Of a stretch of DNA of 45,748 nucleotides, positions 15,509-45,748 are shown piece after piece. Under the pieces are notes generated by a model. That model saw only the letters and a program-made list of their open reading frames with translations. It was not told the origin of the DNA and made no database searches. Location of the stretch: the IMG/VR virus record IMGVR_UViG_3300045988_020540; one strand, 5' to 3'. A program made the translations under genes and the position numbers. Origin of the DNA: a virus. How positions within the stretch are numbered: the first letter of the stretch is position 1; each line of letters starts with the position of its first letter.

Positions 15509-15624
15509 AAGAGATAGCAACGACAACTAAATAATTATAGGTTGTCAATGCTGCTGTATAGCAGGCAAGCCGCCCGGTGTACAGATTGCACAAATTGATA
15601 ATTGAATATAGGAGGTCAAGTATT

Positions 15625-16002
15625 ATGTATGATTACAGAGAAGCAATGACAGAGGATGTAAAAGAATGGATCAAAGAAAACATTGATTTGACAGAGTGGA
15701 CAGAGGACAGAGAAGGACTTGAGCAACAGTTAAATGATGATCTTTGGACAGAGGACAGCATAACAGGAAATGCAAGCGGTTCTTATTATTGTAACTCTTA
15801 CAATGCAGAGGAAAGCATAGCTCACAACTGGGATTTACTCAACGAAGCCCTTGACAAGTTCGGACAGAACGACATAAACGTTATCAAAAAGGGTGCTGAG
15901 TGGGCAGATGTAACAATTCGTTGTTACCTTCTGGGGTCTGTAATATCCGATGTATTAAACGAGATGGAAGAAAACGGGGACTTTGACGAGTCCGACAACT
16001 AG
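15625..16002 (+). CDS. Acidic hypothetical protein (125 aa), first gene of the cassette
   Basis: ATG at 15625 is preceded by ataggaggtc. The track ORF starts earlier, at 15577, without an RBS. I recognise no motif. Confidence 0.6.
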   Translation: MYDYREAMTEDVKEWIKENIDLTEWTEDREGLEQQLNDDLWTEDSITGNASGSYYCNSYNAEESIAHNWDLLNEALDKFGQNDINVIKKGAEWADVTIRCYLLGSVISDVLNEMEENGDFDESDN

Positions 16003-16104
16003 CACACGTTGCGGCGTGTATAAATAGCCAGTCAAGCCGCAAGCGTCCCGGCTCTGCCGGGGGTCTGGAAACAGAACACAATAGAATATAGGAGGTCTTA
16101 TATT

Positions 16105-16449
16105 ATGAGAGAATACAGCTTTAGAAAAGATGGTTTTACTTTTGAGAGAGTCAGCAAGGCAACAGCCCGCCGGGTATTTAATAACAATATGCCTATTATG
16201 TTATGCCCTTGCAATTTAAGACCAGAAATAGGGTTATTTAGTACAGTAGTACAGAACGGGAAATATTTAGACACAACGTTTGAAACCCTATTAAATACGT
16301 TTGAATATTACAACTGTACAACCAACGAAACGGGACGTTATACAGCGTTTTATATCCCGGTGACAGAGGTTGACCGCTTTACAGGTGAAACACCAACGGC
16401 GGCAACTCTGGGAACTGTAAAACAATATGATTATAACTTTATAAACTAG
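16105..16449 (+). CDS. Hypothetical protein (114 aa)
   Basis: The RBS context (gaatataggaggtc...tattATG) is nearly identical to that of the preceding gene. Confidence 0.6.
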   Translation: MREYSFRKDGFTFERVSKATARRVFNNNMPIMLCPCNLRPEIGLFSTVVQNGKYLDTTFETLLNTFEYYNCTTNETGRYTAFYIPVTEVDRFTGETPTAATLGTVKQYDYNFIN

Positions 16450-29764: not shown

Positions 29765-30469
29765 TTATTCTGCGAATACCCAGTCATCGGCAAGCATATC
29801 TGCCTGAGAAGCAAGCCAACCCATCTGCACACCGGAAGTTCCGACAAAAGCTACCGCCATATTACCGATTGCATCATGCTCACAGTTCACGATATCTCCG
29901 GTAGGTGCTTTGTAAGAGATTCCGCTTGCAAGCTGAATGTACTGCTTCTTGCCGTTCCATCCTTTGCGGGCTACCTTGTGTCCACGTTTCAGATACTTGA
30001 TTGCTTCCCCGAAAGAGAAAGTAGCTTCACCACCCATTGCAGGGCAGTTCTTAGTACTTGCAAGCACCCATTCATCGGAAAGAATGTTCAGAGTGGTGTA
30101 TTCAACTCTCTTAGTCTCACGGATATCCAGTTCTCTGCCGTCCTTCGTGTGCATCACGATAGTTTCCTTTGCAGCATCCCAGTACCAGTAACCGCCCCAA
30201 GACGGAAGTTTTACCGGGTAGCCCTGCTTCATCAGCTTGAACGCTTCCTTGAAATCCATCGGAGTCAGGTTTTCTACAACAACTTCCCAGTCACCTGTAG
30301 CAACCCACATGAGATCATATGGAAAAATCTCTTTTACATCACATTCAAAACCCTCTTCGTCATGGTTCACGATCATACCGTCTTTCTTATACCAGTAAGC
30401 GTTTTCCCACGCTTTCAGTTTGATCTTCTTACCTTCGTCCATAACCTTGCTCACTTCATGAAATTTCAT
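29765..30469 (-). CDS. Protein with three tandem DUF2829 (Tad2-like) modules
   Basis: The C-terminal module FSFGEAIKYLKRGHKVARKGWNGKKQYIQL...GWLASQADMLADDWVFAE fits the DUF2829 pattern well. Two more degenerate modules sit at about aa 1-65 (FHEVSKVMDEGKKIKLKAW...GDWEVV) and aa 70-139 (FKEAFKLMKQGYPVKLPSWGGYWYW...LSDEWVLA). Confidence 0.6.
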   Translation of the reverse strand: MKFHEVSKVMDEGKKIKLKAWENAYWYKKDGMIVNHDEEGFECDVKEIFPYDLMWVATGDWEVVVENLTPMDFKEAFKLMKQGYPVKLPSWGGYWYWDAAKETIVMHTKDGRELDIRETKRVEYTTLNILSDEWVLASTKNCPAMGGEATFSFGEAIKYLKRGHKVARKGWNGKKQYIQLASGISYKAPTGDIVNCEHDAIGNMAVAFVGTSGVQMGWLASQADMLADDWVFAE

Positions 30470-34418: not shown

Positions 34419-34825
34419 TCAAATTCCTCCACCCACTGTCGAAAAGTCTTGTACTGCGGAAATTCCTTTTCAGTGATCGTTCCCTCACCGTAAAGCTGTC
34501 TCAGCATGAGTTCATCAAAAGACACCATGTAAATACGTCCGTCTTTCAGCTTCATAGCAAAGTAACAATGCTCATTCCCTGTCTGCTCCCACAGTGTCAT
34601 TGCACCTTCCTGATTACCTTCAATCCGGGATAACGGGAAGCGGTTGGTTTCACATTCCTTGCAGTCAATCAAGACCGGGATGCCATTCTTAACCGCAATC
34701 ACATCTGCGGGCTGTCCTACCTGATTCTGTGCCATGTTGTGTGCCCAGAAACCATGTAAGGCAAGCAGTTCACAAAACTCTTCCTCAAAGTGGTTTCCAT
34801 TTTTCTTGTTACTGTTGGTGGACAT
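34415..34825 (-). CDS. PD-(D/E)XK Holliday junction resolvase-like nuclease (RecU/Hjc-like)
   Basis: 136 aa. GNHFEEEF and PADVIAVKNGIPVLIDCKEC fit the E...D...(D/E)xK layout. Confidence 0.5.
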   Translation of the reverse strand: MSTNSNKKNGNHFEEEFCELLALHGFWAHNMAQNQVGQPADVIAVKNGIPVLIDCKECETNRFPLSRIEGNQEGAMTLWEQTGNEHCYFAMKLKDGRIYMVSFDELMLRQLYGEGTITEKEFPQYKTFRQWVEEFE

Positions 34826-35373
34826 TACGCTTCCACCATTTGCACCTGACGGTGCAATTTAAGATTCTTCGGATTGAATACACAAGCCGGGGCAACCCCA
34901 CTGCTGTAGTACGCAAAGTCGCCGTCCAGATAACCCGTATTGTACACACCGCGAACGTAGTCACTGTTCCCGGCGTCTGAGATATACCAAGGAGTGCAAG
35001 TCCACATCCACTCAGGAAGCAGCGGAACGTGCTTACGGTACTTTCTGTATTCATCACAACTCAGGATGAAAACTCTATCTGTGACTGTGCCGTAACGGTC
35101 ATCTCCGTTGTCAGCTACCAAGTCAACCTCATGAGGAATAAGATTATCCTCACCCAACACAGGAAGCAGTTCATTGAGCAGCTTTCTACGCAGGCTTGAC
35201 TTTGCGTAGTTGTTGCAACCGTCATCATCGAAGCTGTACTCTTCATTGTTCCAAGCGGAAGTCATAACTGCCAGAACACCGCCATCCACGTTGTTGTCAA
35301 GGACGATCCATTCAAAACCCTTGAAGCCGAAACGCTCACCTGCACTTAATACACCAATGTTTTCTTCTTTCAT
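34825..35373 (-). CDS. Second (remote) DGR target protein, small, with a C-terminal variable region
   Basis: The C-terminus ...SDAGNSDYVRGVYNTGYLDGDFAYYSSGVAPACVF is encoded by VR2 and is homologous to the TR and to the VR1 end of 42051..43196. I prefer the start at 35373 (MKEENIG) because a GGAGG lies 8 nt upstream. Confidence 0.8.
   Translation of the reverse strand: MKEENIGVLSAGERFGFKGFEWIVLDNNVDGGVLAVMTSAWNNEEYSFDDDGCNNYAKSSLRRKLLNELLPVLGEDNLIPHEVDLVADNGDDRYGTVTDRVFILSCDEYRKYRKHVPLLPEWMWTCTPWYISDAGNSDYVRGVYNTGYLDGDFAYYSSGVAPACVFNPKNLKLHRQVQMVEA
34840..34857 (-). promoter_or_regulatory. Hairpin 23 nt downstream of VR2 (candidate DGR target-recognition element)
   Basis: The minus strand reads TTGCACC-GTCA-GGTGCAA, a 7 bp stem with a 4 nt loop. 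It lies inside the last codons of the gene. Confidence 0.6.
34881..34977 (-). repeat. DGR variable repeat 2 (VR2)
   Basis: Gapless alignment to TR 41449..41545. All 17 mismatches fall at plus-strand T of the TR, which is A on the coding strand. Confidence 0.85.
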
Positions 35374-35375
35374 GG

Positions 35376-35525
35376 TTAATTCCTCCATTCATAATCTTTG
35401 TGGTACTTTGCCTTGTACCATTCTTCAAACTCTTTCTTGTGTTCCGTTGACTGGAAGTAGTCTTTGACTCTCTCAATCAACTGGGAACACAAAGCACTTT
35501 CTTCCATCGTAGGAACTGCCATCAT
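35376..35525 (-). CDS. Small protein (49 aa) between cro-like gene and DGR target 2, not in the ORF track
   Basis: My translation is MMAVPTMEESALCSQLIERVKDYFQSTEHKKEFEEWYKAKYHKDYEWRN. The ATG overlaps the upstream TGA, and an AAGGAG RBS is present. Confidence 0.45.
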   Translation of the reverse strand: MMAVPTMEESALCSQLIERVKDYFQSTEHKKEFEEWYKAKYHKDYEWRN

Positions 35526-36403: not shown

Positions 36404-37987
36404 ATGTACGAAGAGATTAAGACTGCCTGTCTATATCTGCGATATTCAAGCAGCAACCAAACTGAACAGTCCATAGAAGGTCAGATGCACGTCTGCCAAG
36501 ATTTCTGCAAGAGACACAATATCAGAATTGTAGAGATGTACATAGATCGTGCCACCTCTGCCAGTAAGGACATAGAGAAAAGAGTAGAGTTCTTGAAGAT
36601 GATTAAGGACTCAGAAAAGGGGAACTTTGATGCAGTCATCGTCTATAAACTTGACCGCTTTGCCCGATCCCGGTATGACTCAGCTACTTACAAGTACCGT
36701 CTGAAAAGAAACGGTGTACAGCTTGTCTCTGCCACTGAGAACATCACCCAAGACCCGGAAGGAATCATTCTTGAATCCGTTCTTGAAGGTATGGCAGAGT
36801 TCTATAGTGCGGAACTCTCACAGAAAATCAATCGTGGTATGAGGGAGTCAGCTATGAAGCATAACTCCATCGGTGGGGCTATCCCTCTGGGGTACAAGAC
36901 CGTGGATAAGAAACTGATAGTTGATGAAACCACTGCACCTATCGTCCGGGAAGCATTTCAGATGTATGCAGACGGTGAGTCCGTAGCTGAGATATGCAGG
37001 ACATTCAATAACCGTGGGTACAAGACCTCAAAGGGAACACGCTTCGGGAAAAGCAGCTTCACCAAGATTTTCCGTAATGAGAAATACATCGGAGTCTATA
37101 AGTACCATGACTACCGGGCAGAAGATGTTATCCCACCGATCATAGATAAAGCCCTCTGGGACAGAGTGCAAGTGAGAATCGGTAAGATAAAGAAAGCCCC
37201 TGCCCGAAACAAGGCAAGGCATACTTACCTTCTGACAGGGAAACTATTCTGCGGACACTGCGGCAGTGCCATGAACGCTGACGGCAACTCTAACGGCTAT
37301 CTATACTACAGATGTTACGGTAAAAAGAATCTGGATAAACAATGTAATAAGCGGAACATGGAAAAGAACTTGATTGAAAGACTGGTTGCACAGGACGCAA
37401 TGTCATTCCTAACCGATGAATATATTGAGAAGATTGCTACTATTGCCTGTGACCGGAACAGACAAGAGATTGAGAGTGATTCACCCATCCCTGTGATCCG
37501 TGACCGGATTAGACAGGTTGACGTGTCTTTGAACAATCTGCTGAAAGCTATCGAAACTGGGTCTGCCCCGGATATGCTTGTAAAGCGTATGGGAGAACTT
37601 GAAACTGAGAAGAAAGATATGGAAGTGCAGCTTAAAAAGGAAATGGCACACCAAGTCTATATTGATAAAGAGCAGGTAATCTTCTGGTTAGAGAAGTTCC
37701 GTGAAGGGGATATCAATGACGAAGAGTTCTGTCAGACCGTGATTGATCTGTTCGTAAATTCTGTGACTGTATGGGATGAACCGGACAATAAGTTCAGGAT
37801 CACCATAGCCTATAATCTCACCTCTATACCGCAAAAAACCTACCGCCTGTCGAAAGACGGTAGGTTATCGGATTACGCTTCCAATACTCCACCATTGAGT
37901 GCAAATCCAATGATCTCAGGAAGCCTTATGATTCATACCTTTACAGTCACCGTACACCCGCAGAAACGGGGAAGGAAAACCCTGTAA
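36404..37987 (+). CDS. Large serine recombinase (integrase)
   Basis: The N-terminal resolvase domain has CLYLRYSSSNQ (catalytic Ser region) and VIVYKLDRFARS. A recombinase domain follows, then a zinc ribbon (CGHCGSAM...YYRCYGK) and a coiled-coil C-terminus. I prefer the start at 36404 with its GGAGG RBS. Confidence 0.9.
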   Translation: MYEEIKTACLYLRYSSSNQTEQSIEGQMHVCQDFCKRHNIRIVEMYIDRATSASKDIEKRVEFLKMIKDSEKGNFDAVIVYKLDRFARSRYDSATYKYRLKRNGVQLVSATENITQDPEGIILESVLEGMAEFYSAELSQKINRGMRESAMKHNSIGGAIPLGYKTVDKKLIVDETTAPIVREAFQMYADGESVAEICRTFNNRGYKTSKGTRFGKSSFTKIFRNEKYIGVYKYHDYRAEDVIPPIIDKALWDRVQVRIGKIKKAPARNKARHTYLLTGKLFCGHCGSAMNADGNSNGYLYYRCYGKKNLDKQCNKRNMEKNLIERLVAQDAMSFLTDEYIEKIATIACDRNRQEIESDSPIPVIRDRIRQVDVSLNNLLKAIETGSAPDMLVKRMGELETEKKDMEVQLKKEMAHQVYIDKEQVIFWLEKFREGDINDEEFCQTVIDLFVNSVTVWDEPDNKFRITIAYNLTSIPQKTYRLSKDGRLSDYASNTPPLSANPMISGSLMIHTFTVTVHPQKRGRKTL

Positions 37988-40021: not shown

Positions 40022-40199
40022 GATCCTGTACCTCCTGTTCGTCATCTTCCTGCTCCATCTCGATATCTGTCATCATAGCCAGATATTCAATGTCACTGTT
40101 CGCCTTTGCGATCTGTGCCTGCATTGCAGCGTTCTTCTGACGCTCTTTTACAAGCTGTTCTCTTGCACTGATAAATCCAAACATTTGCTTTCCCTCCAT
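40005..40199 (-). CDS. Small acidic coiled-coil protein
   Basis: 64 aa ORF overlapping the 3' end of the RT ORF. An alternative start MFGFISA lies 5 codons in. Confidence 0.4.
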   Translation of the reverse strand: MEGKQMFGFISAREQLVKERQKNAAMQAQIAKANSDIEYLAMMTDIEMEQEDDEQEVQDHGEEE

Positions 40200-41281
40200 A
40201 AATTCTTATAATATTGATCCATACAGATAATGAGGTTGTGACAATTTCTCCTTGCCCTCCTACCCGGAGATTTCCTTTTCTTGCTACTCTCATTACCTAC
40301 ATGGGCTTTCCAACTCTCATAACACCTGTCAACCTCTTCCTTCGTCATGTACCCTTGCTTTGCCCTTTCTACCAACTTCCGCAGCTTTCGCCGTTCGTGT
40401 GATAACTTCTCTGGCAGTAATGTCATGACTACCTTTCCGGTCTTTACCAACCGGAAGCGGAAACCTAGAAACTTGATACCCTGAGTCACCTTGAAAAGCT
40501 GTGTTTTCTTCGGACTCAATCTCAAACCTCTTGCGGTCATCCAAGCATCTATCTTTATCAAACACTCCTGTAAATAAGCCTTGTCCTCATGGATGATAAT
40601 GAAATCATCGTTGTACCGGACATAGTGCTTAATATGAAGTTGCTCTTTTATAAAATGGTCGAAGTCATCTAAGACTGCTAACTGTATAAGCTGTGTCGTT
40701 TCTGAACCAAGACCCATACCTACCTCTGGATCATCACCCTGATTGAAGCTGTCAATGATCCGCTTAATTTCTCCGTTCACCCATTCATCCGTGACTCTCT
40801 TCGTTACCGCTGAATAAGCCAGTTCATGAGAGGTGCTACCGAAGAAATTCTTCAAGTCTGCTTTGAGTACCCACCCTTCCGTACCGTGTTTCCGGTAATA
40901 CTTTTGTAGGTGGCAGATCAGCCTTTTCCTTGCGAACTCTGTTCCTCTTCCGTCCTGACAAGCACAGTTATCATAGATAAATGATTTTGTCATGGTATCG
41001 TAAAAGTAGTTGTCGCATAGGCTTCTCTGAAATACTCTGTCCTTGATTCTTGTACTTACAATGTCTCTTTCTTTTGGCTCATACACTTTGAACTGTGTAT
41101 AAGCATCTAACTTATATGTACCATTCTCCACGCTCTCCTTTAGCTTATGAACATTAACCAAACCATTCTTTACATACCCGGCTACACTGTCTTTCCACAT
41201 GACGTTGTTCTTGCAATGCTGCATAGCCCGGTACAGATTATCAAAGTCACAGACTTCATCTCTCACTTCGGATTCCATCAT
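40148..41281 (-). CDS. DGR-type reverse transcriptase
   Basis: 377 aa with RT motifs. The YxDD box appears as VRYNDDFIII. LGSETTQL sits in the position of the DGR-specific [I/L]GxxxSQ motif. The gene is directly downstream of the TR. Confidence 0.85.
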   Translation of the reverse strand: MMESEVRDEVCDFDNLYRAMQHCKNNVMWKDSVAGYVKNGLVNVHKLKESVENGTYKLDAYTQFKVYEPKERDIVSTRIKDRVFQRSLCDNYFYDTMTKSFIYDNCACQDGRGTEFARKRLICHLQKYYRKHGTEGWVLKADLKNFFGSTSHELAYSAVTKRVTDEWVNGEIKRIIDSFNQGDDPEVGMGLGSETTQLIQLAVLDDFDHFIKEQLHIKHYVRYNDDFIIIHEDKAYLQECLIKIDAWMTARGLRLSPKKTQLFKVTQGIKFLGFRFRLVKTGKVVMTLLPEKLSHERRKLRKLVERAKQGYMTKEEVDRCYESWKAHVGNESSKKRKSPGRRARRNCHNLIICMDQYYKNLWRESKCLDLSVQENSL

Positions 41282-41552
41282 GTATATTTCTCCCGTAAAT
41301 CATTGGTTGCCGTTTATAGTGATACTGCCGTAAGGACGGCAATCACATCAGCACTCCGTTTTCGCCCTACTATATTCAGGTCAGGGTGACGATTCCTTGT
41401 GTGAGTGCATTGATTTCAGCCTATGCCTACTTTATTACTAGCGTTTCTCACAATCCGGGGCAACCCCATTGCTGTTGTTCGCATTGTTGTTGTTCAGATT
41501 ACCCGTATTGTTCACATTGCGAACGTTGTTACTGTTCCCGGCGTTCGGGGTA
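41282..41552 (-). ncRNA. Predicted DGR RNA: template repeat plus 168 nt spacer upstream of the RT
   Basis: A non-coding stretch lies between the TR 3' end (41450) and the RT start (41281). It contains a perfect hairpin, TGCCGT-CCTT-ACGGCA on the transcribed (minus) strand, at 41326..41341. Confidence 0.5.
41450..41552 (-). other. DGR template repeat (TR)
   Basis: In the frame of the targets the coding strand reads TPNAGNSNNVRNVNNTGNLNNNNANNSNGVAPDC, with 15 AAY codons. It has 35 adenines on the coding strand. It is not part of any plausible ORF. Confidence 0.9.
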
Positions 41553-41586
41553 AACACATATCTTACAATCGTCAACCTTATATCAT

Positions 41587-42006
41587 TTACTTGTATCTAT
41601 TTTCATCAGACCTCTTCCAGTTCCGAAGAAGATTCTGGACATTGATTACAAGTCCTGTCCAGTAGTCCATCTTAGAACCTTCGATTCCGAAAGTACGGTA
41701 AGCAATATCCATCATGGTTAGCAAGGAATATGTCTATGCCAAAGCCTGAACTTGATATCCTCTCCGTAATTCCCAGTCGGCTTTCCAATGTTCAGACTCA
41801 GGATTCACATACACTGAATTTGCCATATTGATAAGTCGGCTGATTTCTACCGCAGCATCTACGATCTTTGCGGTGATGCACCAACGGTATCTCTTCGGGA
41901 AGCAACTCTCATTACTGCAAATATGGATAGTATGTGTAGCCAACTCATTTGCCTTTGTGATTACTTCCAACTTTGAAGTACCTCTCTTTGACTTCGGTAC
42001 TGACAT
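41587..42006 (-). pseudogene. avd: avd (accessory variability determinant, four-helix-bundle type) interrupted by an in-frame TAG at 41734..41736
   Basis: The N-terminal part (42006..41737, MSVPKSKRG...YQVQALA) and the 42 aa ORF 41715..41587 (MMDIAYRTFGIEGSKMDYWTGLVINVQNLLRNWKRSDENRYK) are in the same frame. They are separated only by TAG plus 6 sense codons. The combined length of about 139 aa ends 35 nt before the TR. Confidence 0.65.
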
Positions 42007-42022
42007 TTTCCTCACTCCTTTC

Positions 42023-42040
42023 CCACCCCTAACGGGGTGG
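42023..42040 (-). promoter_or_regulatory. Hairpin 22 nt downstream of VR1 (candidate DGR target-recognition element)
   Basis: The minus strand reads CCACCCC-GTTA-GGGGTGG, a 7 bp GC-rich stem with a 4 nt loop. It lies between the target stop (42051) and the avd RBS. Confidence 0.65.
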
Positions 42041-42050
42041 ATTTCTGATC

Positions 42051-43196
42051 TTAGATTACGTTACAAGCCGGGGCAACCCCATGGCTGTTGTTCGCACCGT
42101 AGTAGCTCAGATCACCCGTACTGCGCACACCGCGAACGTTGCCACTGTCCCCGGCGCTCGGGGTACGCTCCCACTGCCACTGCGGACTACCGTTTTTATA
42201 CTTCACACGGTTACTATCAGCACCCGTGTTCGGGGAAGTATAATCAGAATAGTCAGAGTAGTAAGGGTACGGCTCACCTTCCTTGACACTGCTCACTTCA
42301 TCACCCATGAATAACTCACGTCTGGAAAGCAGGAAGAACTTGTCCTTTGTGGTATCAGAACCACCGCCGTCAGTTACGTTATTACGACAAGTAACCTTTG
42401 TGGTCTTACCGATAACTGCAAGGAAATCTGCATCCATTCCATTCATAAATCCTGCCTTATTGGAAACCCAAGAAGGAGGTCTATCATAATTGGTAGCAGG
42501 TGTCCAAACAGAACCCGCAACTTTGTCACTGTTCAACCATCCACGAACCGCAGACTCTTTATAGTTATTAGAGCCGTAGCACATTCTCTGACCGCTGTTC
42601 AGCGTTGTCAGTTCCGTACCGCCTGTACCCTCTGTGGGCTTCACAGTTTCAATAACTGTGGTGCTTGTAGGACTGGCGTAAGTTTTAATGTCGTATTTCA
42701 GCGGGTCTTGATCCCAAGCACCATTCCATACGATCTGTCCACCCTTCGGAACTGCTTTCGCAAGAGTAAACTGGTAAGTCTTACCGTTACCCATACCACC
42801 ACTCCAACCGTTCTTAGGAGTTACATGATATGTACCTGCGGCAAGTTCCTCTTCTGCATAATACATAGCTGCCGGGGCGTTAAACTGTACATAATCAAAC
42901 ACCTCATGAAGCTGTAAAGTCATGCTGTGAGTGAACTGCTTGTCTGCCGGGGTATCAATGTCAAAACCGATGATATCCCACACCAGAGTTGTGCTACCTC
43001 TCTGACAGGTCAACTGATCTCCCACCGCAAATACCTTGCTTGCCAGTCCCTTACGAACAAGTGCCTGCACATCACTCCAAGATGTAGGTTTCAGGCTGCC
43101 ACCCTGTCCGGTTGCAATCGCAGCAAGGAACTGGTTCATAGTGTCCATCTTCTCTGCGAACGTATCGTCAGAGAGAAAACCAAACTGATTGCTCAT
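42051..43196 (-). CDS. DGR target protein 1: tail-fibre tip / receptor-binding protein with a C-terminal variable region
   Basis: 381 aa ORF directly after a coiled-coil fibre shaft gene. The C-terminus TPSAGDSGNVRGVRSTGDLSYYGANNSHGVAPACNVI is encoded by VR1. Confidence 0.85.
   Translation of the reverse strand: MSNQFGFLSDDTFAEKMDTMNQFLAAIATGQGGSLKPTSWSDVQALVRKGLASKVFAVGDQLTCQRGSTTLVWDIIGFDIDTPADKQFTHSMTLQLHEVFDYVQFNAPAAMYYAEEELAAGTYHVTPKNGWSGGMGNGKTYQFTLAKAVPKGGQIVWNGAWDQDPLKYDIKTYASPTSTTVIETVKPTEGTGGTELTTLNSGQRMCYGSNNYKESAVRGWLNSDKVAGSVWTPATNYDRPPSWVSNKAGFMNGMDADFLAVIGKTTKVTCRNNVTDGGGSDTTKDKFFLLSRRELFMGDEVSSVKEGEPYPYYSDYSDYTSPNTGADSNRVKYKNGSPQWQWERTPSAGDSGNVRGVRSTGDLSYYGANNSHGVAPACNVI
42063..42165 (-). 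repeat. DGR variable repeat 1 (VR1)
   Basis: 103 bp gapless alignment to TR 41450..41552. All 17 mismatches fall at TR positions that are A on the coding strand. Confidence 0.9.
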
Positions 43197-43210: not shown

Positions 43211-44098
43211 TTATCCTGTAACAACTTCGTCATACTCAAATACGGGCTTACCACCAATCACCTTGATTGCACCCTGATAGGTTTTCCCGGTATCATCGTT
43301 GACGATCATCATAGTAGCTGCCGCTTTCAATGCAGAATCGGTAGCAGTGTTGCAATCTGTGATTGCCTTTGAAGTGTCCTGCTGACGCTTTGTTTCTGCC
43401 TGAACTCTTGCAGTCTCAGCAGCTACCCTCTCAGACTCTGCATCAACTCTCCCCTGCTCTGCGGAAACTCTTTTCTTTTCAACTTCTACTCTGGCACTTT
43501 CAGCTTCTACAATTCCCTGTTCGGTATCAGAAGCATTGGTTATTGTTTTCTCCAATGCCGTTTTCTGATCTGTTGCTTTACTGATCGTTTTTTCCAGTTC
43601 TTTTACCTTAATATCGGTATGCTCTGTTATCTCTTCTTTAGCCGTAGCTTTCTCAGAATTGATATAAGCAGAAGTTTGATTTTTTACTTCCTGAATTGAA
43701 GATTCCTGCTGTGTCTCTATTGCAGAATTAGCTTCTGAAATCTTATCAGCAACATGATTGTCAAAACCATTCACTCTTGAAGCTGCACTGTCCGCTGATG
43801 ATTTTGCTGATTCTTTAAACTGCTGTGCTTCATCTTTAAAGCCTTTAGCACTTGCTGCTGAACTTTCAGCCGAACTTGCTGCGTTCGATGCAATCTGCTG
43901 TTTTTCACTCACATCCGACTGCATTTCTTCTACAGATTTCTTTGCTGCTTCTACAGCGACTTTATCTTTTGCAACTTGTGTTGCTGAATCTGCAAAATGA
44001 GCCAACACTTCACCAAACTCTTCTCTTGTACCTGTATAACCCTGTGCCACAGCATCGGCATAAGCTGTTACACATCCGAGGTCTGTAGTTAAACTCAT
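43211..44098 (-). CDS. Tail fibre shaft protein (coiled coil)
   Basis: 295 aa, Ala/Ser/Glu/Lys-rich heptad-like sequence (AESSAASAKGFKDEAQQFKESAKSSADSAAS, ARVEVEKKRVSAEQGRVDAESERVAAETARVQAE). Confidence 0.65.
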   Translation of the reverse strand: MSLTTDLGCVTAYADAVAQGYTGTREEFGEVLAHFADSATQVAKDKVAVEAAKKSVEEMQSDVSEKQQIASNAASSAESSAASAKGFKDEAQQFKESAKSSADSAASRVNGFDNHVADKISEANSAIETQQESSIQEVKNQTSAYINSEKATAKEEITEHTDIKVKELEKTISKATDQKTALEKTITNASDTEQGIVEAESARVEVEKKRVSAEQGRVDAESERVAAETARVQAETKRQQDTSKAITDCNTATDSALKAAATMMIVNDDTGKTYQGAIKVIGGKPVFEYDEVVTG

Positions 44099-44745
44099 GA
44101 CATCTCTACCTCCAATCTTCCGTTATTGATTTTGAAATTCAGACTTTGCAGTATATTTTCTGTTCGGGTTAAATACAAATGACCATCTTCCCGGATTTCC
44201 ATATGACAAAATCCATTATTTACGGCTACCTGTTTAGCCTGCTCTGAATAATATTTCGCATTGTCGGTATTTCGATCAGGATAACTTTCATGTCCGTGTG
44301 CCCATGATTCAGCTTCTACAGCACTATCACTGGCATTTTGTTCAGAAACTTTTGTTTGTCTCAGATATTCATTTGCAGCAGCTAATGTGTAATGGAATAA
44401 ATCTACATCCTCCGGGGCTTCAAATCCCTCTGGGGCAATTCTTCTATCTAAGTACATTATTACGGTATTTACAGTTTCTCCTTCGTCAGAGGTAGACATA
44501 TAAATATAAGCCTTAATTGTACTTTTCTGAGTCAATGCTTCGTTAGGAATATCAACGGTAGACACTCCGTCTATCGTACTGCCTGTCACGATTTTTGCAT
44601 TATCCAACCCTTTCCATACAAAATGCACCTCAAATACGTCAGGGAGATCAAGACCTTCAATCTGCAATTTCTGACCATAGTCATACATCCAAAGTCCGTT
44701 TAATTCGATTTCTTCATCTTTTTTATGAAACTTTGCAATTAACAT
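44095..44745 (-). CDS. Baseplate / fibre-associated protein (BppU-like N-terminus, putative)
   Basis: 216 aa ORF in the tail-fibre block. The N-terminal pattern YDYGQKLQIEGLDLP...V.F resembles baseplate upper protein N-domains. Confidence 0.4.
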   Translation of the reverse strand: MLIAKFHKKDEEIELNGLWMYDYGQKLQIEGLDLPDVFEVHFVWKGLDNAKIVTGSTIDGVSTVDIPNEALTQKSTIKAYIYMSTSDEGETVNTVIMYLDRRIAPEGFEAPEDVDLFHYTLAAANEYLRQTKVSEQNASDSAVEAESWAHGHESYPDRNTDNAKYYSEQAKQVAVNNGFCHMEIREDGHLYLTRTENILQSLNFKINNGRLEVEMS

Positions 44746-45012
44746 TTACCCGTCCTCCTTTGGCATTTCAGGTTCAGACTGCTCACTCTCTGTTTCAGGT
44801 TCAGACTGCTCACTCTCTGTTTCAAGTTCAGACTGCTCAACCCTTATCTCTGCATATAATTCAGAGTTCTTTATAGCTCTTACATCAGCCAAAGCCCCCT
44901 GTAATACACCTTCCATCAAGTATGCAGGAATGTTAGTTTCAGCAATAATTTGATTGATAGCTGAATTTACCCTTACTCTGACATCTTCAACAATCATCAA
45001 TAAACTACTCAT
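44746..45012 (-). CDS. Small acidic protein with a tandem-repeat C-terminus
   Basis: 88 aa ORF whose start overlaps the stop of the large tail protein. The C-terminus is VEQSELETESEQSEPETESEQSEPEMPKEDG. Confidence 0.55.
   Translation of the reverse strand: MSSLLMIVEDVRVRVNSAINQIIAETNIPAYLMEGVLQGALADVRAIKNSELYAEIRVEQSELETESEQSEPETESEQSEPEMPKEDG
44767..44840 (-). repeat. 27 bp tandem repeat, about 2.7 copies, in frame (9 codons per unit)
   Basis: ttcaggttcagactgctcactctctgt occurs at 44767..44793 and identically at 44794..44820. A diverged partial copy starts at 44821. Confidence 0.9.
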
Positions 45013-45748
45013 TATTTAAGCCCTCCTTTTCATATAAATTTTGTATTAATCTCAGCATAGCCGGAATAATAACCCTAAAGTTCCAGTCCTCAGGTTCGCC
45101 ATTTTCATTTAACTGAGTTGCCTGCGGAAAACAACTGTACACATCCTCTGCATAAAACCCCGGAAGTTTCTTTCCATTCAGCCAGTCTGTTTTATTAAGA
45201 TAACCATCCTTATATTTAAACCAGATTACAGGTATATCTAAGATTTTCTGTGCTTCTTCTAATGTCATGTCTGCAATATGATCTTTATATCTTTTCGAGG
45301 AAGAAGATAAATAAGCTACAGTTGCACCGTCTTTTGCGAATACCATATGTCCACCGGATGTTACATGAGACAGATTGAAAACCTTAAATGCGTCAGAACC
45401 ATCCGAAAACGTTGAAGTACCCGCACGTATCTCTAACCCTCCATTAAAAACGAAAGCATGTGATTGCATACTTAACGTAGCGTAACCCGTACTTATTTTC
45501 CCGTTTGTAATTGTAAAATTACCGATAGTTCCTTTCTTCGCTATAAATGATCCGTCTGTTTTAATCTGAAAATAATTATTCGCTGTAACCAATCCGTTAA
45601 AATTGATTTTAGAAGCATGGATAGTTACACTTTCAGCAGACTGATTAATCTTTGAAATAATTTCATTAGTTCCCACTTTCTTACTTACTGTCAATGTAAT
45701 ACTATCAGCAGATTGCTTAATGGCACTGTTCATCTCAGTGGTTGTGGA
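45005..45748 (-). CDS. C-terminal part of the 874 aa tail protein that begins at 1924, with a probable peptidase S74-type intramolecular chaperone at the end
   Basis: It is in frame with 1..1924 across the 43 bp overlap. The segment AYLSSSSKRYKDHIADMTLEEAQKIL resembles the S(D/S)xRxK autocleavage region of tail-fibre chaperone domains. The stop is TAG at 45005..45007. Confidence 0.75.
   Translation of the reverse strand, partial: STTTEMNSAIKQSADSITLTVSKKVGTNEIISKINQSAESVTIHASKINFNGLVTANNYFQIKTDGSFIAKKGTIGNFTITNGKISTGYATLSMQSHAFVFNGGLEIRAGTSTFSDGSDAFKVFNLSHVTSGGHMVFAKDGATVAYLSSSSKRYKDHIADMTLEEAQKILDIPVIWFKYKDGYLNKTDWLNGKKLPGFYAEDVYSCFPQATQLNENGEPEDWNFRVIIPAMLRLIQNLYEKEGLNNE
45706..45748. repeat. 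Terminal direct repeat, copy of 1..43
   Basis: Exact 43 bp identity with the window start. Confidence 0.9.

Follow-up and report, generated by a model that had tools for sequence, protein, structure and literature searches.

The 45,748-nt IMG/VR virus record IMGVR_UViG_3300045988_020540 (referred to here in its entirety as the window, and as WIN where it is one entry in a contig comparison) holds, at positions 40148-43196, a set of genes and repeats that raises two questions, namely whether they make up a diversity-generating retroelement (DGR) and whether such an element can still operate in this genome. A preliminary description had presented the locus as a complete DGR cassette, composed of a fibre-tip target gene, avd (accessory variability determinant), a template repeat (TR), and a reverse transcriptase (RT) gene. 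Our analysis very strongly supports the identification as a DGR, by virtue of (i) differences between the TR and a variable repeat (VR) that fall exclusively on adenines, (ii) an RT of the DGR type, (iii) an Avd-family gene, and (iv) a C-terminal VR in a target protein with a DUF6273 domain. Taken as a whole, we read the locus as a BPP-1-type phage DGR in a temperate phage of Lachnospiraceae, of which this particular copy is most likely inactive through an amber codon in avd, with its VRs frozen, and we give this reading a probability of roughly three in four. All features of the element described below lie on the minus strand, and all positions are those of the window.

A repeat finder located a direct repeat of 103 nt with 83% identity between positions 41450-41552 and 42063-42165. 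The first copy is the noncoding TR, and the second, VR1, forms the 3' end of target gene 1, an open reading frame (ORF) at 42051-43196 that encodes 381 aa. Homology between the two copies breaks off sharply at both ends, and, when they are compared base by base, all of the differences (17/17) fall on a plus-strand T of the TR, which is an A on the coding minus strand. The TR contains 35 adenines, of which 17 are changed in VR1, and the probability that 17 of 17 differences would land on the 35 T among 103 positions is 3.9e-10 (hypergeometric). Read in the frame of target 1, the TR comprises 15 AAC or AAT codons, and every one of its adenines (35/35) occupies codon position 1 or 2. The collinearity over 103 bp, the number and placement of the differences, the share of adenines changed, and the 15 AAY codons had all been given in the preliminary description, and our recomparison and recount returned the same figures. 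Between the TR and the RT gene lies a spacer of 168 nt (41282-41449), which was delimited by position only. Its counterpart in BPP-1 measures 144 nt and primes cDNA synthesis. The predicted RNA fold of the spacer was no better than that of shuffled sequences (z = -0.55), and no RNA family in Rfam matched within the cassette.

The element reaches beyond 40148-43196, because a scan of the whole window with the TR, in which adenine positions were treated as wildcards, revealed a third copy of the repeat at 34882. This second variable repeat, VR2 (34882-34977), has 96 nt in common with the TR, the first 7 nt of which are absent from it, and its differences from the TR are likewise confined to TR adenines (17/17; P = 7.5e-10 for this placement). 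VR2 resides in target gene 2 (34825-35388), which encodes a small DUF6273-like protein of 187 aa as an ORF, or of 182 aa from the likely conserved start M6. Target 2 matches PHROG 9958 (E = 1.3e-42); its match to Pfam DUF6273 (E = 9.5e-4) is below threshold, and hhalign aligned it to the DUF6273 domain of target 1 with a probability of 96.8%. Hypervariability among the homologs of target 2 is confined to the VR residues.

The 3' end of both VRs, read on the coding strand, is GGGGTTGCCCCGGCTTGT (42063-42080 in VR1) and that of the TR is GGGGTTGCCCCGGATTGT, beyond which all three sequences diverge. This block, which resembles an initiation of mutagenic homing (IMH) element, has the consensus GGGGTTGCCCCGG(C in the VRs/A in the TR)TTGT and is free of A-to-N variation. 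The A-to-C difference, at TR position 41454, is identical in all VR1 and VR2 copies of all contigs and is therefore either a fixed IMH/IMH* difference or the outcome of strong selection for the Ala in the conserved motif GVAPAC, and not a product of mutagenesis. Furthermore, each VR is followed by a hairpin with a 7-bp stem and a 4-nt loop (GTTA or GTCA). The first, which is GC-rich, lies 22 nt downstream of VR1 at 42023-42040 (CCACCCC-GTTA-GGGGTGG; DNA fold -8.5 kcal/mol, z = -3.0), and the second lies 24 nt downstream of VR2, within the coding sequence, at 34840-34857 (TTGCACC-GTCA-GGTGCAA; -8.2 kcal/mol, z = -3.1). Neither hairpin is terminator-like, because no T-run follows it, and the equivalent flank of the TR contains nothing comparable (z = +0.4). 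A survey of DGRs described an IMH at the 3' end of the VR and a nonidentical IMH* at the 3' end of the TR, with a GC-rich start and acting as the 3' limit of mutagenesis, and, for roughly one DGR in three, GC-rich inverted repeats that follow the VR but not the TR (PMC5758913). Judged by their sequences, the VR 3' blocks and hairpins of the window appear to match this IMH/IMH* plus inverted-repeat layout of BPP-1 and other DGRs.

The RT gene (40148-41281) encodes a protein of 377 aa with matches to Pfam RVT_1 (E = 1.7e-20) and PHROG 1423 (E = 1.2e-86). Its best solved match is the 328-aa 8ub7_A, aligned over nearly the whole length (E = 8.9e-24), followed by a group II maturase at 6.5e-10. The printed alignment, set beside the translated brt gene, identified the aligned 8ub7_A sequence as that of BPP-1 Brt. 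The RT and Brt share 27% identity across 328 aa (E = 7e-31), with R and L in the RT opposite Brt R74 and I181. In a tblastn search of phage genomes, RT matches were found in BPP-1, Vibrio phage VP585, Roseburia phage Shimadzu, nd4, and nd12, all of which are described DGR phages, and also in the Faecalibacterium DGR phages Toutatis, Lelie, Brigit, Taranis, Pioen, and Roos. DGR RTs carry the motif [I/L/V]GxxxSQ in addition to the catalytic YxDD. Both RYNDD and LGSETTQ, which the preliminary description had read in this ORF, are present; the second keeps the L, G, and Q and has a T for the S, a position at which relatives vary too ([I/L/P]Gxxx[S/T/I]Q, with T also in the closest relative, L001, and I in L004). 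The RT has YNDD (residues ~222-226) where five relatives, including BPP-1, have YMDD, and a 14-aa basic insertion (SSKKRKSPGRRARR-like) near its C-terminus (residues ~329-342) is absent from these five. Both YNDD and the insertion are compatible with activity, because the identical protein occurs on 119 contigs of a diversifying lineage; the 90%-identity cluster of the RT holds 1007 distinct sequences.

That the RT might instead belong to a group II intron, a retron, or a defence class, with the repeats being an ordinary duplication of coding sequence, is suggested by NCBIfam, in which a group II intron RT model scores highest (104 bits), ahead of weaker Drt3a and retron matches. However, the RT passes no NCBIfam model, these matches being far below the respective cut-offs of 300, 200, and 235 bits, whereas, among solved structures, the BPP-1-type RT outranks every other match by 14 orders of magnitude in a full-length alignment, so that the assignment to the DGR class made in the preliminary description holds. 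Moreover, the element includes an Avd gene, an IMH-like block, and hairpins, and the TR is noncoding and invariant. It is the adenine-restricted variation in the population that refutes this alternative, which we regard as exceedingly improbable.

This variation was assessed in 21 contigs that share the TR, ten of them obtained through the RT protein, ten from IMG/VR through an exact 60-nt TR pattern, and the window itself. While the TR was 100% identical in 21/21 contigs, VR1 took 17 allelic forms, whose substitutions numbered 270 across the 35 A sites and 5 across the 68 non-A sites, and 34 of the 35 TR adenines were changed at least once. The preliminary description had named mismatches outside adenines as the observation that would speak against a DGR, and these counts point the other way. 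Likewise, the 5 VR2 alleles in related contigs showed 93 substitutions at A sites versus 2 elsewhere. Column variability amounted to 32% in VR1, as opposed to 0% in the TR, 0.7% in the RT gene, and 1.4% in avd, and one pair of contigs (L102 and L106) agreed at all 2514 positions compared outside VR1, yet differed at 25 within it. The 90%-identity cluster of target 1 holds 4899 distinct members. The lineage, then, clearly has an active DGR. As a side observation, two contigs (L009 and L014) contain a 3-nt insertion (CGG) in VR1, at window position ~42098, which gives a target of 382 aa; VR indels opposite AAC codons were noted in the DGR survey (PMC5758913).

The window's own copy departs from the preliminary description in avd. 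The presence of this gene between target 1 and the TR was borne out, yet the cassette is not complete, because avd is nonsense-mutated in this copy. The avd frame (41587-42006; 139 codons) likely starts at the ATG at 42006, which is preceded by AGGAG, and is interrupted at codon 91 by a premature TAG (41734-41736) where the common allele of related genomes has CAG, the change being a C-to-T at 41736 (Gln91 to amber). The 93-codon ORF 41734-42015 stops at this TAG, and the frame continues into ORF 41587-41724, which leaves a 90-aa product and 48 remaining codons in frame; in related phages, a single uninterrupted protein of ~135-139 aa extends across the position. Ten contigs encoding exactly the window's RT protein were compared at codon 91, and 8/10 had CAG in a 139-aa gene and 2/10 had TAG (L007 and L012, both 100% identical to the window over 4 kb). 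The RT, the TR, and both target ORFs are intact in the window.

The assignment of this gene to the Avd family rests on the match of the intact protein to PHROG 3206 ('Avd protein of DGR'; E = 2.8e-16, full length) and on weak matches of its homologs to Pfam bAvd (best E = 2.7e-6) and 23S_rRNA_IVP, both below threshold, because other routes gave nothing significant. The window's Avd, with or without readthrough of the TAG, had no significant match in Pfam or NCBIfam (NCBIfam DivGenRetAVD, E = 0.02); the Avd profile searched against PDB sequences returned only 2gsc (E = 0.25); and hhalign gave no significant alignment of Avd to its BPP-1 counterpart.

The exact 90-aa product is encoded on 37 contigs and the intact 139-aa Avd on at least 1000 (NCBI WP_195508859.1, 'MULTISPECIES ... 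Lachnospiraceae'). Since only one base separates the amber from the common allele, a sequencing or assembly error in a genome with a truly intact cassette was considered. This explanation was rejected and is largely refuted by the occurrence of the identical 90-aa product on 37 contigs, from several studies and assemblers (ENA, Logan, and JGI) and in two haplotype backgrounds, and we take it to be highly improbable. Among the compared contigs, the amber was found only in WIN, L007, L012, and L111, which form haplotype A and carry private single-nucleotide polymorphisms, and in L110 and L112, which form haplotype B and, apart from the amber base, are almost identical to the intact-avd contigs L097, L102, and L106. 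The C-to-T change on two haplotypes has therefore either arisen twice or been moved by a short recombination patch. Other shortened Avd products were also seen on long contigs, with lengths of 73 aa (19 contigs), 115 aa (15 contigs), 86 aa (7 contigs), and 56 aa (5 contigs). The recurrence of such lengths suggests repeated independent inactivation of avd in the phage population, and a broken avd copy is not unusual.

Avd is essential in the BPP-1 system. With avd nonsense-mutated, the window's copy is therefore most likely inactive; on this analysis, the DGR of this genome is probably off, and VR1 and VR2 would be the frozen products of earlier rounds. VR1 is identical in all seven amber-carrying pairs within a haplotype (7/7; 0-1 differences outside the VR), whereas equally close intact-avd genomes have 15-25 VR1 differences, and the window's exact target 1 protein was found on 5-7 contigs. 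The identity of VR1 within the amber haplotypes fits a frozen VR, although this support stays suggestive, because the amber contigs come from few studies and possibly from few individuals.

A cassette that works in spite of the TAG could rely on low-level readthrough of the amber, on a functional Avd made in two pieces (the 90 aa plus a C-terminal fragment re-initiated from the TTG at 41724), or on Avd supplied in trans from a related co-resident prophage. Such activity would agree with the 48 undamaged, in-frame codons after the TAG, with the persistence of the amber allele on its 37 contigs in two haplotypes with different VR1 alleles, and with the abundance, in the same hosts, of related DGR phages with a >95% identical Avd (at least 1000 contigs). 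It is, however, hard to square with the lack of a suppressor tRNA in the window, where TAG terminates other genes, with the lack of VR1 variation within the amber haplotypes, and with the other truncated avd alleles (73, 86, and 115 aa), which look like ordinary loss-of-function drift. On balance, we consider a still-working cassette unlikely. Recoding of TAG, or a suppressor tRNA encoded by the phage, was rejected: the window contains no tRNA gene, 9 of its 58 long ORFs end in TAG, and none of the long ORFs has an internal TAG.

Several points nevertheless weigh against a BPP-1-type DGR with an inactivated copy in the window. The codons after the TAG are intact and the same as in the common allele, so that either the mutation is recent or the downstream part is still used, and the amber allele is carried by two haplotypes with different VR1 alleles. 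Moreover, the identical VRs of the amber contigs may stem from the same people having been sampled, or the same data assembled, more than once, the Avd family signal lies under the curated Pfam and NCBIfam thresholds, and a lectin fold of the targets was not confirmed, as detailed below. That the window's copy is probably inactive is, further, what we infer from the mutated avd. As a lesser and doubtful proposal, the amber allele, which was seen on two haplotypes, could be a selected 'lock' that freezes a successful VR.

In the BPP-1 model, a complex of RT and Avd would bind the transcript that contains the TR (41552 to 41450, minus strand) together with the downstream spacer, and would reverse transcribe the TR with random misincorporation opposite template adenines. 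The cDNA would then replace a homologous VR, which could be either VR1, in the 381-aa DUF6273 protein beside the tail genes, or VR2, in the small DUF6273 protein of the early operon. The recipient sites may be marked by (i) the GC-rich IMH-like 3' block with its one fixed difference from the TR and (ii) the GC hairpin ~22-24 nt downstream.

Target 1 lies directly downstream of tail- or baseplate-type genes and contains VR1 in its C-terminal DUF6273 domain (Pfam, E = 1.5e-18; aa 204-380, VR included). It further matches PHROG 19280 (E = 2.3e-58) and the 'Hoc-like' PHROG 10993 (E = 9.8e-26), and no sequence match to any solved Mtd was found for it. The assignment of DUF6273 as a lectin has its basis in PMC10743442, and work on the Faecalibacterium phages Lelie and CP11 presents DUF6273, in both their large and their small targets, as a DGR target domain that resembles C-type lectins (PMC11792537). 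In our searches, the profile of target 1 homologs matched a solved IgA protease, 9qa6_A, at its N-terminal DUF6273 domain (E = 3.1e-9). An AlphaFold2 model of target 1 showed a β-rich N-terminal part and the C-terminal DUF6273 domain; its mean predicted local distance difference test score (pLDDT) was 72.9, but fell below 50 over residues 315-371, which make up the VR. Foldseek with this model found nothing significant in the PDB and, in BFVD, only other phage DUF6273 proteins, so that no solved lectin fold was matched. The AlphaFold2 model of target 2 failed (pLDDT 31.7, unusable), the retrievable homologs all being >82% identical, and the target 2 profile had no match in the PDB.

The preliminary description had also taken VR1 most likely to diversify a receptor-binding tip, from the position of the cassette between a coiled-coil fibre shaft gene and the lysis genes. 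The neighbouring genes and the C-terminal position of the VR in DUF6273 agree with this, whereas the tip role itself is what we infer from position and domain, and is plausible. A receptor-binding role of target 1 is reasonable because the gene follows a structural gene whose counterpart in sister genomes has a weak match to BppU_N (baseplate).

Target 2, by comparison, is about the third gene of the early/replication operon, ~6.5 kb from the cassette, near genes for RecU, a helicase, a Tad2-like protein, and ERF. It is translationally coupled to the RecU-like resolvase, the start of which overlaps the target 2 stop (TAATG). Between target 2 and the cassette come the lysis genes, along with a serine integrase and a repressor arranged as a divergent pair. 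The Tad2-like (Thoeris anti-defence 2) domain in the same operon is C-terminal in a 234-aa protein (29765-30469, minus strand; Pfam, E = 4.6e-28). Neither a signal peptide nor a membrane segment is visible in target 2, and its homologs in Toutatis/Lelie and nd4 sit among regulatory and replication genes, not in structural modules. Target 2 could be a hypervariable binder that is expressed early and acts inside the cell, such as a diversified counter-defence or host-takeover factor, and not a virion receptor-binding protein, a proposal that we put forward as a doubtful one.

The resemblance to the DGR of Bordetella phage BPP-1 is extensive. The gene order target-avd-TR-RT, which the preliminary description had likened to mtd-avd-TR-brt, agrees with the annotated BPP-1 record, and the spacing is similar; in both elements, the VR is at the 3' end of a 381-aa target and is followed by avd, the TR, the spacer, and the RT gene. 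The two also share adenine-only differences, a GC-rich 3' block with a TR/VR difference, and a 4-nt-loop GC hairpin that follows the VR but not the TR, as defined in PMC5758913. In contrast to BPP-1, the target in the window is a DUF6273 protein and not Mtd, there are two targets, one of them remote, and avd is broken in this copy. Furthermore, the Avd (139 aa) is only distantly related to its BPP-1 counterpart, and the RT differs in having YNDD for YMDD, TQ for SQ in LGxxxSQ, and a C-terminus that is ~50 aa longer.

A similar architecture is found in the Faecalibacterium phages Lelie, Toutatis, and CP11 (PMC11792537), in which one TR likewise serves two VRs, situated C-terminally in the DUF6273 domain of a large and a small protein. 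Their RTs are 34-35% identical to that of the window, and their small target, which is 29% identical to target 2 over ~90% of the length, is also far from the RT, amid regulatory and replication genes. They differ from the window in that the host here is Lachnospiraceae/Blautia, in that the phage genome is a different one, with no DNA-level similarity found, and in that the large target here is directly upstream of avd, as in BPP-1. The gut-virome phages nd4 and nd12 (PMC10743442) also have two-target DGRs (tentaclin plus tgt2), with homologous Avd (25-28% identity, full length) and RT (33-36%), and their tgt2 is a small single-domain DUF6273 protein that is 34% identical to target 2. An invariant TR and adenine-restricted VR variation were likewise seen across genomes related to nd4 and nd12 (PMC10743442). 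Unlike the phage studied here, nd4 and nd12 are small myoviruses, and the lectin domain of tentaclin is N-terminal and followed by Ig domains, whereas DUF6273 is C-terminal in target 1. Roseburia phage Shimadzu shares a Lachnospiraceae host and an RT that is 33% identical over 94% of the query, although no DNA-level similarity was found; its DGR, as cited in PMC11792537, reportedly varies a tail protein along with another protein whose function is unknown. For gut Firmicutes phages, two-target DGRs that pair a large with a small DUF6273 protein have already been published, and the element in the window is of the same kind.

The window is a circularly permuted, nearly complete phage genome. The L007 contig (46,024 nt) contains 149 extra nt between the window's two ends, and ORF 45005-45733 is only the C-terminal part of its gene, because a 938-aa tail gene spans the junction. 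Structural or tail genes lie upstream of the cassette, and XkdX, holin, and endolysin genes lie downstream, with the endolysin (end 37988) and the serine integrase (end 37987) converging without a gap. Sister contigs are prophages, and five of them (L006, L009, and L013-L015) lose similarity at ~37887-37889; the attachment site lies within the 3' end of the integrase gene, because the point of loss falls among the final ~33 codons of that ORF. Two prophages (L009 and L014) are integrated beside different genes, and the host flank of the L006 prophage is 100% identical to Blautia luti. The exact TR was not found among GTDB species representatives. With its host read from the prophage flank, the carrier appears to be a temperate siphovirus-like phage of human-gut Lachnospiraceae, with one prophage copy in a Blautia genome.

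Three further features of this genome were noted. Upstream of target 1, the window has a module (43211-45012) encoding proteins of 88, 216, and 295 aa, and six sister contigs (L006, L008-L010, L013, and L015) have an alternative module encoding proteins of 724/719, 493/490, and 292 aa, with DUF859 and a weak BppU_N match. The DGR core is >97% identical with either upstream module, which indicates that tail-tip genes are exchanged as modules while the DGR beside them is conserved. The 88-aa protein, encoded between tail genes by ORF 44746-45012, contains acidic SEQSEPETE-like repeats that are encoded by three tandem 27-nt repeats (44766-44846, minus strand). In addition, a Pistol self-cleaving ribozyme (16004-16068, plus strand; Rfam RF02679, 61.1 bits versus a gathering threshold of 34.5, E = 8.2e-9) lies between the plus-strand ORFs 15577-16002 and 16105-16449.

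As a DGR, this element adds little, because two-target DUF6273 DGRs have already been described in gut Firmicutes phages. Its value is that of a clean natural data set, comprising a very common phage, an invariant TR, and thousands of VR alleles, which could serve to measure DGR turnover in the human gut. The features that deserve attention are the natural avd-null alleles and the small target of the early operon. The former, present in otherwise near-identical genomes, could be used to test whether loss of Avd freezes the variable regions, and the recurrent early-operon placement of the latter prompts one to ask what, other than parts of the virion, is diversified by a DGR.

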